A stretch of DNA of 64,000 nt, from assembly GCA_951406725.2 (NCBI GenBank), contig OX597818.1, positions 35,526,001-35,590,000 on the forward strand, read 5' to 3'. Made by a program: the position numbers and the translations under genes. Source of the DNA: Octopus vulgaris. Its lineage: Eukaryota. The notes below the pieces were generated by a model. That model worked only from the letters and a program-made list of their open reading frames with translations. It was not told where the DNA came from and searched no databases. Position 1 is the stretch's first letter. Each line of letters starts with the position of its first letter. Below are positions 250-18,070 of this stretch, in pieces.

Positions 250-404
250 TCTCACCTGGATTTTTGTAATTTTTTCAAGACTTATACACGCCCTGATACC
301 GTCTGCATCTACGTATCAAATTTGAGTGCAACCGGATGGAGGATGCCCGAGATCCTAGAAGACACACAGAGACAGACAGAACGGATTTTATATAAGAGAC
401 TAGA
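250..404 (+). mobile_element. Possible 3' end of a non-autonomous Helitron-like repeat
   Basis: caaatttgagtgcaaccgg motif, then a (GACA)-like tract, ending ...tttatataagagactag. This layout resembles invertebrate non-autonomous Helitron ends; no coding support. Confidence 0.25.
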
Positions 405-8544: not shown

Positions 8545-9397
8545 AGGCGGCGAGCTGGCAGAAACGTTAGCACGCCGGGTGAAATGCTTAGCGGTATTTC
8601 CGTCTGCCGTTACGTTCTGAGTTCAAATTCCGCCGAAGCTGACTTTGCCTTTCATCCTTTCGGGGTCGATTAAATAAGTACTAGTTACCCTCTGGGGTCG
8701 ATATAATCGACTTAATCCGTTTGTCTGTCCTTGTTTGTCCCCTCTGTGTGCAGCCCATTGTGGACAGTAAAGAAATAAGAAACGTTAGAACGCCGGGTGA
8801 AATGCTTTGCGGTATTTCGTCTGCCGTTACGTTCTGAGTTCAAATTCCGCCGAAGCTGACTTTGCCTTTCATCCTTTCGGGGTCGATTAAATAAGTACTA
8901 GTTACCCTCTGGGGTCGATATAATCGACTGGATCCGTTTGTCTGTCCTTGTTTATTCCCTCTGTGTTTAGCCCCTTGTGGGTAGTAAAGAAATAGGTATT
9001 TCACCTGGCGCTACGTTCTGAGTTCAAATTTCGCCGAGGTCAACTTTGCCTTTCATCCTTTCGGGGTCGATAAATTAAGTACCAGTTACGCACTGGAGTT
9101 GATGTAATCGACTTAATCCCTTTGTCTGTCCTTGTTTGTCCCCTCTGTGTGCAGCCCCTTGTGGGGAGTAAAGAAATAAGACACGTTAGCACGCCGGGCG
9201 AAATGCGTAGCCTTATTTCGTCTGCTGTTACGTTGTGAGTTCAAATTCCGCCGAGGTCAACTTTGCCTTTCATCCTTTCGGGGTCGATAAATTAAGGACA
9301 AGTTACGCAGTGGGGTTGATGTAATCGACTTCATCCCTTTGTCTGTCCTTGTTTGCCTCCTCTATGTTTAGCCCCTTGTGTGCAATAGAGAAATAAG
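8545..9397 (+). mobile_element. Head-to-tail array of four family B SINE units (Nin/Deu-like central domain)
   Basis: Four ~185-235 bp units each containing gagttcaaattccgccga...ctttgcctttcatcctttcggggtcgat...aagtac; only unit 1 keeps the aggcggcgagctggcagaa 5' end. Confidence 0.88.
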
Positions 9398-9917
9398 TAA
9401 CTTTACCACCTCCGCTATGCCAGGGCTGTTTCTAGTAGCAGATGCATAGCTCTAAATACACTTACCACCTCTTCCTCCGCTCATGGATATACCACGAAGG
9501 AAAGACAAATCAACATGGCCACATTATTTACGAAATTAGAGAGGATGTCGAACTTTGATTAAGCGTAGTCCAGTGAAAAAATGGATTGAAGCTGCACTGT
9601 CTCATGTACTTCTGATATTCTGTATTATGCCATAGCTTTCATTATCAGATTTTCTTTCTATTTTCTATTTGAAAATGGTACATTTAAAAAAAAATACTAG
9701 GAAGATTTCGATGATGTCTTGTAGCATGAAAACCGATGTTGCTATGATAAAGTTGAGTCTAGGGATAAAAATCATGTTCGTTGTGATGCTTGAAGTCTCC
9801 TCAGCAACATCAAGAGAAAAAGTAAACACAATCCGTTAAAATCATGTGACTTGCTGTACAGATATTCACAGTGATTCAGAAACAGTGACGGTGAAACACA
9901 AAGCAAACACAAATATC

Positions 9918-13978: not shown

Positions 13979-14244
13979 AACAGTTGGAGCGTGGAAGGTG
14001 TTTATAAGCCATTTAAGAAACACACAAAAACCGTTTGATGCACTTCAACATTTAAATATAATTTGCCAAAATATTTTCGTGGCTTTGAGATCGCAACCTG
14101 TTCACCGACAAAATTCTGCGAACAGGCCACGGTCTCAAAGCGACGAAAATGTTTTGACAAATTATATTTAAATGTTGAAGTGAATCTAACGGTTTTTGTG
14201 TGTTTCTCAAATGGCTTATAAACACCTTCCATGCTGCAATTGTT
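13979..14244. repeat. ~265 bp fold-back inverted duplication with a hammerhead-like motif on each arm
   Basis: tggaaggtgtttataagccattt... is mirrored by ...aaatggcttataaacaccttcca; ~12 nt spacer near 14106-14117; right arm runs on ~55 bp to (TA)n. Confidence 0.92.
14062..14112 (-). ncRNA. Hammerhead-like motif with G3-C8 core variant
   Basis: Minus strand TTTGTCG GTGAACA gGTTGC gatctcaaa GCCAC GAAA ATAT T T TGGCAAA: 7-bp helix I (two wobbles), core GUGAACA, palindromic helix III AATATT. The mirrored copy at 14118-14161 (+) supplies GCGAC and TGACAAA. Confidence 0.62.
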
Positions 14245-14299
14245 TTCATTCCAGCACACGATCTCAGATCAGGTCAATTGCTATGCAAGTACATCTCCG

Positions 14300-14350
<51 letters not shown>

Positions 14351-15624: not shown

Positions 15625-15835
15625 ATTAGCAACCACATCAAAAATAAGCGATGGAGAATGCCTAATTTTCACAATTTGAATCGGTATATTATGGATAGAC
15701 AGATAAGAAACAAACAACGCATAAATTAAAATTGGAACAATTAAAGACACTATATCATGGATAGTCAGAATAAAAATAAACAATGGAAAATGTCTAATTA
15801 AAACAAGTAAAACCAATAAATTATGGATGATCGGG
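15625..15835. repeat. Cryptic diverged tandem repeat with 66-bp period
   Basis: atggat recurs at 15691, 15757 and 15823; aaaaataa.c.atgga.aatg.ctaatt recurs 132 bp apart. Confidence 0.65.
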
Positions 15836-18070
15836 TAGGACACAAGGTAGAGGTCTAATTGTGAGAATTATAATCAGTAGATGTTTAATTACGGCAATGA
15901 AAACCAGTATATTATGCATGCTTAACTACGAACCACGAATAATATTTGACCTAGTGTCCGTATAAGAAATAATTAGCATTATACATAGAGACAGAATACT
16001 ATACATTGGGACAAAATTTGTAGGGAGCTTAACCTTGCCATATTTAGAAACAATCCTGAAAATAATACGTTCTGTTCGAGTAAAGGGTGACTTTGCCTTT
16101 TAGTAAAATGAGAAGTTTAACTGTGATAATAAAAACCCAGTAATTTACGGAACATCGGATCAGAAATAAGTGAGATAGAAGCTGTAATTGCTTCAATTAA
16201 AATCACTATATTATAGATGGCCATTTTGTTGTCCTCGCGACCTGCAACTGGATGGCTGAACTAAATACTACAAAGAACTCTAACGTTGTTTGAATGTAGG
16301 GAATTTGGATAATTTAATATACCTTGGTAACAAAAATCCTGATTAGAAATTTTGACTCTCCTTCCACATACGAACCAGTCCGCATTTGTGTAATTTTAAA
16401 TAGTACTTTCTGCCGACGCATCACCACTAGGTTTTTAATACTCCGGTGTTTATTAGACATATTAAATGTTGTATGGAATGTAACGCGACCCTTTATGGTT
16501 CTGTCAGAGGTATGAACCATTTCAGGTCAATTGGAAGAGTCGTTCTAACATCAGATAAATTACTTTAAGTTCATCTTTCCGACTCTCTACATGATACGCT
16601 TTATCCTCTCGGGGTCAATAAAAAAAGATGCTTGCACGGTACTGAGATTGATTTTCCTAATTCTTTCCTTCTTCTCTTCCTGTCTCTGCTATCCCGCAAG
16701 AAATCGGATGTGGCCAGACTTGGTCTAAAACAGCTCATGACATACTACATATCATGCTAGCTCCCTTACCATTCCACCAAAAAGTAGAGACTCCAAGCCA
16801 AGTCTTTCCCCACTTTAAAAATGCAAACGAATATTTTATATCGCATGCTGTCAAACATGTTACGTTCATTTGATAAGCAATGTTATTTCACAAAGCATGG
16901 AAAACGAAAAATGATTATAAAATCGTAAACGAAAAGTTCTTTAACTTACCAGCCACTAAAATGTACATCTGACGTAAAATGAACAATCCAGTTAGGCCAA
17001 ATTTTGACACATTCAACATTGTGATAGAAATTAGATTTGTTATCGCTCCTAGAGATTTGATTTCGCTCCTATGATTTCAATTTTTTTCTTTTTCTATGAG
17101 TGTTAAACTGAAATCAAAGTGTCCAAGTTCTTGACAGTTTCAAGCAAACTGTCCTAAATTTGTTTGAGTAAAAATACTTTCCCATGATTCGTACAACAAT
17201 ATTTACGCTGAAATTTCCGTGCTATTTCCTTGTACAGTATCCATAAATTTCTCGTTTCTTCCAATATTACTTCAATGGTTAATACTTTCGGTTGTCATGT
17301 GAGCTGAAATAAAATAGAAATAGAAGTTTATTATTAATAGCCAAATACAACGATCTACTTCTCTTGCACTCTCACTCTCTCTTTCTATCTCACTCTCTCT
17401 TTCTCTCTGTTTCTCTCTGTCTCTCTCTCATTTTCTCTGTACATAACTTAAAACATTTATAAACATTTTCTATGCGATGAAATGAATACATGAAGTGGTG
17501 TTATAGACAAACTTGACATAACGAAAAAAAAAATCAATTAACTGTGTTCATAGCTGTTGTAGCTGCTATATTGTCCTGCTGATAAATAATTCTCGAATCA
17601 GGTGAGGATGAAACCTGTCTGTTCTAGATATTTATATATATAGAATGAATAATGCCTTTGTTTCGAAAGGTATACAAAATGAAGGACACTATCAGTAAAA
17701 TACTGTCCTTAACAGTGAAAGGACACTTTAGAGCACTTCGAATTTGTGTATCAAGAAGCGCTTTATAAATGATGAGGGAACATTTACGACAAGTATATCA
17801 GATGGTATTGGGCACAGTTTCAAATACAAACCTGTCATAGGCAAGGGCTTACCAGGAAACTAACAACATTCCGAAGCTTGCCCAATGAAATTCTTTGAAT
17901 GCTAGATAAGTTGTTGCATTTGTATTTCTCTTATGTTTTTTCTCTTCTAAACATGAAATGCATTAGCACCTGAAATACTATCAAAATAAATGATGGAATT
18001 ATGCATTTTCTGTAATGATGCACTACATAAGCTGCACACACAAACCTATGCGTGCACGAACATTATATAC

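Follow-up and report, generated by a model that had tools for sequence, protein, structure and literature searches.

Why does a palindromic repeat in the octopus genome carry a hammerhead-like fold with the core GUGAACA, and does the reversed pair between core positions 3 and 8 reflect selection on a ribozyme? The repeat lies in a 64,000-nucleotide stretch of Octopus vulgaris DNA, which we call the window, and the original prediction read it as a hammerhead in which C3G and G8C had been selected together on both arms. We find that window positions 13979-14303 derive from the pLTR and tail of a Penelope-like retrotransposon, inserted as a tail-out palindrome that is truncated at its 5' end (Table 1). 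The window holds a decayed copy of the hammerhead of this family, which we consider likely to be kept by selection as a slow self-cleaving ribozyme, assisted by dimerization or by a protein.

The centre of the palindrome is a 130-bp inverted repeat (13979-14108 and 14115-14244) with 88% complementarity, flanked on both sides by TA-rich microsatellites. Of the two 3' ends found in the family, the left arm has the shorter. Its minus strand, from 14112 to 14062, reads TTTGTCG GTGAACA G GTTGC GATCTCAAA GCCAC GAAA ATAT TT TGGCAAA, and the GUGAACA, the AATATT and the UUU triplet are thus present as claimed. An extra G between A9 and G10.1, at 14098, had been overlooked. The GCGAACA reported for the right arm does start at 14118; however, this arm matches the family unit only from unit position 23 onwards, and the GCG is therefore junction sequence. 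The seven-base-pair helix I likewise stands for the left arm and fails for the right, where its 5' strand is missing, the 5' strand of helix II is GCCAC and stem III is AATGTT. The helix II that had been reconstructed from the two arms, GTCGC/GCGAC, is indeed the family sequence. Given a 130-bp inverted repeat of 88%, the arms are one element copied twice and not two independent witnesses; with the right arm truncated as well, the appeal to both arms as evidence for covariation has to be given up. The tail contains an ATG (14283-14285), the ORF start in full-length copies.

Table 1. Features of the palindromic insertion, in window coordinates.
Feature	Position	Strand	Remarks
Left arm, inverted pLTR copy	13979..14112	-	Unit positions 14-148; 90% to the unit, 86% to the full-length element L303
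Decayed minimal type I hammerhead motif	14062..14112	-	
Left-arm helix I	14112-14106 with 14068-14062	-	7 pairs, two of them G.U
Core GUGAACA	14099..14105	-	G3 at 14105, C8 at 14100, A9 at 14099
Left-arm helix II	14097-14093 with 14083-14079	-	5 bp, one mismatch
Left-arm GAAA	14078-14075	-	
Left-arm palindromic AATATT	14075-14070	-	
Predicted cleavage site	14068..14069	-	After U17 (14069) of the UUU triplet, as placed by hammerhead numbering
Right-arm hammerhead remnant	14118..14161	+	Helix I without its 5' strand; helix II and stem III mismatched
Right arm, 5'-truncated pLTR and tail	14120..14303	+	Unit positions 23-207; 92% to the unit, 90% to L303
Tail	14245..14303	+	One arm only, then (TA)n

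With both arms damaged, the window copy by itself proves little for the hammerhead motif. Its left arm folds no better than shuffled sequence (z-score +0.53), and it fails the strict descriptor of the family motif, which gave 0 matches in 10 Mb of random 34%-GC sequence searched on both strands. A transcript spanning both arms is modelled as one long hairpin of about -175 kcal/mol, which is predicted to bury the motif. We predict that this copy is inactive. Elsewhere in the window, tandem units of 184-217 nt at 8560-9399 belong to another dispersed repeat, with similar sequence in L094 and L326, and three diverged 66-nt direct repeats lie at 15640-15845.

What is the state of the motif in the family? 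The family motif is a minimal type I hammerhead composed of helix I, GUGAACA, an extra G, helix II, GAAA, a palindromic AAUAUU and a UUU site. The repeat is dispersed, with 2313 candidate copies in the genome and 3427 exact genomic matches to a 26-mer 3' of the motif. When copies are retrieved with a 32-mer that leaves positions 3 and 8 free and fixes the 30 flanking bases, 1111 of 1228 have G3/C8; the genomic alignment proposed as a check of the original prediction thus finds the pair fixed and the motif and helices kept. In a looser context, 0 of 25 copies altered at both sites have C3-G8. We also aligned 79 distinct arms from 60 loci, chosen by motifs 3' of the ribozyme (half of the loci by a tail motif), some of which represent one amplified composite repeat and hence are not independent; G3 occurs in 51 of 52 and C8 in 58 of 58 of the arms covering the respective site, and U4, G5, A6, A9, G12, A13, A14 and A15.1-U16.1 are conserved at 94-100% per column. 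G10.1-C11.1 and the H17 site are likewise kept in the family, and the core is otherwise conserved in 28 young motifs, one of which lacks an A. The common variants within the motif fall in loop II or at CpG sites, or convert a helix I A-U to G.U. At positions 3 and 8 no variant of at least 4% was seen in contigs of runs X2, X9, X12 and X15, which carry four coded organism labels and may come from close relatives. Finally, a young copy and an older copy have fold z-scores of -3.40 and -2.12, respectively, with helices I and II both formed. In the minimum-free-energy model of the monomer, G3 pairs with U17 and extends helix I; this off-pathway state lies 6.8 kcal/mol below the monomer fold as drawn and counts against the ribozyme reading.

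Measured against the usual description of a hammerhead, the family departs from the literal CUGANGA (C3, G8) in having GUGAACA, permits a Watson-Crick pair between positions 3 and 8 in the form G3-C8, and has both a palindromic stem III (AAUAUU) and an NUH site (UUU). As had been foreseen, the swapped core is invisible to CUGANGA searches, since by definition the pattern cannot match. Rfam covariance models gave no match in the window at the gathering threshold and, with E up to 10, none in the best 150 of 160 rows; because the canonical C3-G8 minimal hammerheads of two relatives (L261 and L266) were missed as well, this negative is uninformative.

Copies with a broken pair are also found. In the looser context, 424 copies have G3 with a residue other than C8, and position 8 in the first 100 of these is T in 53, G in 32 and A in 15. 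Both arms carry G8 in two of the three palindromes retrieved with both cores, so a broken core can be copied. We considered a G3/G8 intermediate subfamily and rejected it, as the 20 G8 loci are spread over several subfamilies. For this reason, and because C-to-G exceeds C-to-A at other columns too, we read G8 as a recurrent change.

To which element does the repeat belong? An upstream continuation of the unit, first seen at contig loose ends and in L134, is present in 570 copies, and walking upstream from the motif reaches the end of a GIY-YIG ORF about 1 kb before it. Conversely, 28 of the 30 top GIY-YIG loci for the partner protein have the motif at most 1.5 kb downstream, all 28 with G3/C8; when one of these ORF copies is taken as reference, the others match it at 97.8-99.2% over 633 nt, and the family has therefore spread recently. 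L303, a young copy with a motif at 1235-1284, is a full-length element of 4.26 kb in which each pLTR carries the motif, the two lying 4261 bp apart; the ATG of its RT/GIY-YIG ORF comes 164 nt after G3. The palindrome tail continues into the ORF in L232, L233 and L239, and one copy has 999 open codons after the inversion junction. PF01541 (GIY-YIG) scores above its cut-off at residues 889-979 and is preceded by a linker, CQSNCAVC (CX3CxxC). Pfam gave no RT match in the ORF protein, in which RT motifs were recognised by eye; its closest named homologs are annotated as 'reverse transcriptase domain' proteins. A named protein from Octopus vulgaris matches the genome at 100% over 122 residues, which makes the host this species or a close one.

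A CX2-5CxxC linker before GIY-YIG defines the Neptune/Nematis clade in PMC8557442. Judged by its sequence features against that description, the element classifies as an EN+ Penelope-like element of Neptune or Nematis type. It shares with the elements described there the RT, the linker, the C-terminal GIY-YIG and the pLTRs, present as direct repeats, as well as the inverted 5' copies, the tail formed by the ORF start and the TA-rich, (TA)n targets. The octopus tail is about 60 nt long, in contrast to the 30-40 nt given for EN+ elements in the same source.

The link to this ORF also decides whether the repeat is a MITE or foldback DNA transposon with an accidental likeness to a hammerhead, as a 130-bp inverted repeat and more than 2000 genomic candidates could suggest. 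The marks by which we tested that reading, fixed terminal inverted repeats and the lack of an RT link, are not what we found: the arms are unequal, junctions vary, single-arm copies are common, and the unit is the direct terminal repeat of an RT/GIY-YIG element, which refutes a MITE and leaves this explanation with next to no credibility. Nor does coding constraint account for the motif, which lies upstream of the ATG with in-frame stops; a short upstream ORF switches frame between subfamilies.

Two other candidates for the element were rejected. A 781-codon GIY-YIG family could not be its partner, as it carries a U3-A8 motif of its own, and the inverted pairs 2.8 kb apart in L061 and L062 are a composite repeat in which no RT ORF was seen. 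This composite repeat exceeds 2 kb and contains one palindromic copy; the composite as a whole was amplified and forms large inverted pairs (L061:1043-8490 and L062:2538-6683; the same group includes L033, L040-L042, L049, L053-L056 and L058-L060). Near a copy of the element, L224:3-1370 (minus strand) holds a 456-codon open frame with C2H2 zinc-finger repeats.

How did the reversed pair arise? The closest family in the genome shares 57% amino acid identity with this one and groups as its sister, with support 1.00, in an 18-row FastTree for which the distant 781-codon family served as root. Of the sister family's 29 motifs, which match in layout, 28 carry C3-G8. Its helix II differs by a double change (GUCAC/GUGAC, compared with GUCGC/GCGAC here), and it has C at position 9. 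The sister family retains intact frames of 1311-1312 codons (L301:1656 and 6251, plus strand; L270-L299), and loop III of its hammerhead is non-palindromic. We looked for the motif in nine metagenome relatives. L261 and L266 have C3-G8, and L263 has U3-A8 with C9 (motif at L263:2497). In L264 a U3-A8-like motif has U where G5 is expected and keeps both helices and the palindromic loop intact; this motif, read by eye in a single contig, lies 5' of the ORF at about 280-320 (plus strand). No motif was found in L262 and L265, whose 3' ends pass into repeats, nor in L267-L269, which are partial, with the exception of one weak candidate in L269. The extra nucleotide between A9 and G10.1 is G in this family and likewise in the sister family, L261, L263 and L266. 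A further family in the genome, the abundant 781-codon GIY-YIG family (L300:4566, plus strand; L100-L123), has a U3-A8 minimal hammerhead without the extra nucleotide; the U3-A8 motif is present in 19 of its 30 top GIY-YIG loci.

With C3-G8 in the sister family and either C3-G8 or U3-A8 elsewhere among the relatives, G3-C8 is the derived state, and pairing was maintained through the change. Two transversions, one at each partner of the pair, produced G3-C8 without further change in the core, and it is itself one evolutionary event. These comparisons support reading the double change as covariation between positions 3 and 8, and to this extent the selected covariation first suggested for the locus is borne out, by relatives that keep C3-G8 or U3-A8 in matching architecture. 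In an 8-row alignment the 3-8 pair is CG in three rows, GC in three and UA in two, kept in all eight, and 85% of cells are paired compared with 62% in shuffles and 33-49% in slid controls; as the rows were largely picked by a descriptor requiring the pair and three come from one family, with L262, L264, L265 and L267-L269 left out, the count overstates independence and illustrates more than it tests.

Could the ribozyme have ceased to matter, so that a master copy drifted and the complementarity of its two changes is a coincidence? There was a single event, a complementary outcome is not rare once two changes have occurred, and families expand from few masters, so that thousands of copies are not independent. 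However, both transversions struck partners of one pair while the rest of the core stayed the same, the non-coding sequence around the motif can now be aligned with that of the sister family only by way of the paired fold, and the position of the motif outside the ORF means that coding does not explain it. We therefore think drift very unlikely. The core does drift within the clade, as seen in the C9 of the sister family and L263 and in the G5U-like motif of L264, and hence the pair could be kept without much catalysis.

The ends of the insertions show how the copies form. Among the 79 arms the 3' ends are bimodal, with 27 at unit positions 140-147 and 45 at 203-207, the longer end being favoured by the tail-motif selection of half the loci. 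Of the 79 5' ends, 24 fall at -3 to +1, in a cluster immediately before the motif, and one of 79 arms starts at the predicted cut, a junction that the helix I repeat could explain too. In the absence of a pile-up there, the copies come from uncut RNA. Copies made in vitro likewise come from uncut RNA, according to PMC11167929, which also describes a Penelope-like reverse transcriptase that starts, at AT-rich nicks, from two internal RNA sites, giving rise to the tail signature. A CTAAC...TTTCTCAG sequence precedes the sharp 5' boundary of the octopus family, which may mark either the start of transcription or a splice acceptor at an intron end. Penelope of Drosophila virilis offers an intron precedent for such a boundary. 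A branch-point sequence, a pyrimidine tract and a CAG-like sequence are seen at the boundary in L134, L154-L183 and L303 (just 5' of 1222). A cap-derived G at the 5' end was rejected because a G at position -3, in 9 of 27 junctions, is too weak a signal.

Hammerheads in the catalytically active conformation form the 3-8 pair, as work on engineered mutants has shown. We propose that transcription would start within the pLTR, about 20 nt before G3. The two motifs of the pLTR-ORF-pLTR transcript would pair through their AAUAUU palindromes, supplying stem III, and the G3-C8 pair would hold nucleotide 8 in place, as C3-G8 does. The RNA would be cut slowly after UUU, trimming the transcript ends, and with slow cutting most RNA would be copied uncut. 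Reverse transcription would then begin where TA-rich DNA is nicked, from either of the two sites 3' of the motif, and run to the RNA 5' end, often adding the inverted second arm that would account for the palindrome in the window. Cleavage that depends on the pair is, we think, a good bet for the family motif. In published work, minimal Penelope-like hammerheads, in which A9 is followed by an extra nucleotide and loop III is palindromic, show weak cleavage as dimers (PMC4209133; PMC6765202); G8C slows the reaction 10^5-fold, and adding C3G recovers part of the rate (PMC8495972); and the Anolis Penelope-like hammerhead, whose cleavage requires its protein, loses activity with C3G or G8C and regains part of it in the double mutant (PMC11167929).

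Alternatively, the fold may be selected and no longer cut, serving as a protein-binding or folding element or overlapping a promoter, with G3-C8 keeping the shape only. The missing pile-up at the predicted cut and the C9 of the sister family fit this explanation, as do accounts that cleavage is dispensable for insertion in vitro and that no RNA-seq reads end at the site (PMC11167929), and that hammerhead function in EN+ elements is unclear (PMC8557442). Against it, U4, G5, A6, A9, G10.1-C11.1, G12, A13, A14 and A15.1-U16.1 are kept together with H17, and the engineered swap is partly active in a Penelope-like hammerhead (PMC11167929); we regard a fold that does not cut as unlikely, and slow self-cleavage remains our preferred reading. 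A G3-C8 variant is stated in PMC3884650, as 'data not shown', to be more active with G17 than with C17. The U17 of this clade may thus have eased the swap. More tentatively, and at slightly less than an even chance, no natural hammerhead with G3-C8 in reversed order would have preceded this one, which would be active in an element that has spread recently; inherited U17 would have avoided a G3-C17 trap, and a slower core would tune the escape of RNA.

If an active G3-C8 is confirmed, Penelope hammerheads would be under selection for active-site geometry and searches by core consensus would miss whole families; the clade has sampled C-G, U-A and G-C at 3-8 and A or C at position 9. More generally, that both partners changed and the pair was kept argues for selection on the shape of the active site and bears on whether Penelope hammerheads need to cut in vivo, and descriptors built on CUGANGA overlook thousands of ribozyme-like motifs in a single animal genome.

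How does the octopus motif compare with known hammerheads? With the minimal type I hammerheads that Cervera and de la Pena (2014, PMC4209133) describe in metazoan Penelope-like elements it shares the pLTR location, the extra nucleotide between A9 and G10.1, G10.1-C11.1, the palindromic loop III, pairs on opposite strands 100-700 bp apart and a majority of truncated copies. It differs in having G3-C8 where those have C3-G8 or U3-A8 and in its extra G where the consensus in the supplement gives H; helix I here is 7 bp. The matches listed in supplementary file 2 of that paper had CUGA or UUGA cores. The family is thus a variant of the known Penelope minimal hammerhead, and an earlier natural example of G3-C8 may exist; in the literature searched, mostly papers outside subscription, the G3-C8 cases found were engineered and none was natural. 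Natural U3-A8 hammerheads have been reported (PMC3088659; PMC4209133), and these and the octopus G3-C8 are both natural compensatory changes of the 3-8 pair. However, U3-A8 takes two transitions and keeps the pyrimidine-purine order, whereas G3-C8 takes two transversions and reverses it. The wild-type G3-C8 adds this reversed pair to a natural set of C-G, U-A and G-C, found in related elements and all in one genome. Finally, the engineered C3G/G8C mutants, including that of Anolis Poseidon (PMC11167929; PMC8495972), carry the same swap with partial rescue; what had to be engineered in the Anolis Poseidon hammerhead is the wild type in a recently spreading family of the octopus.
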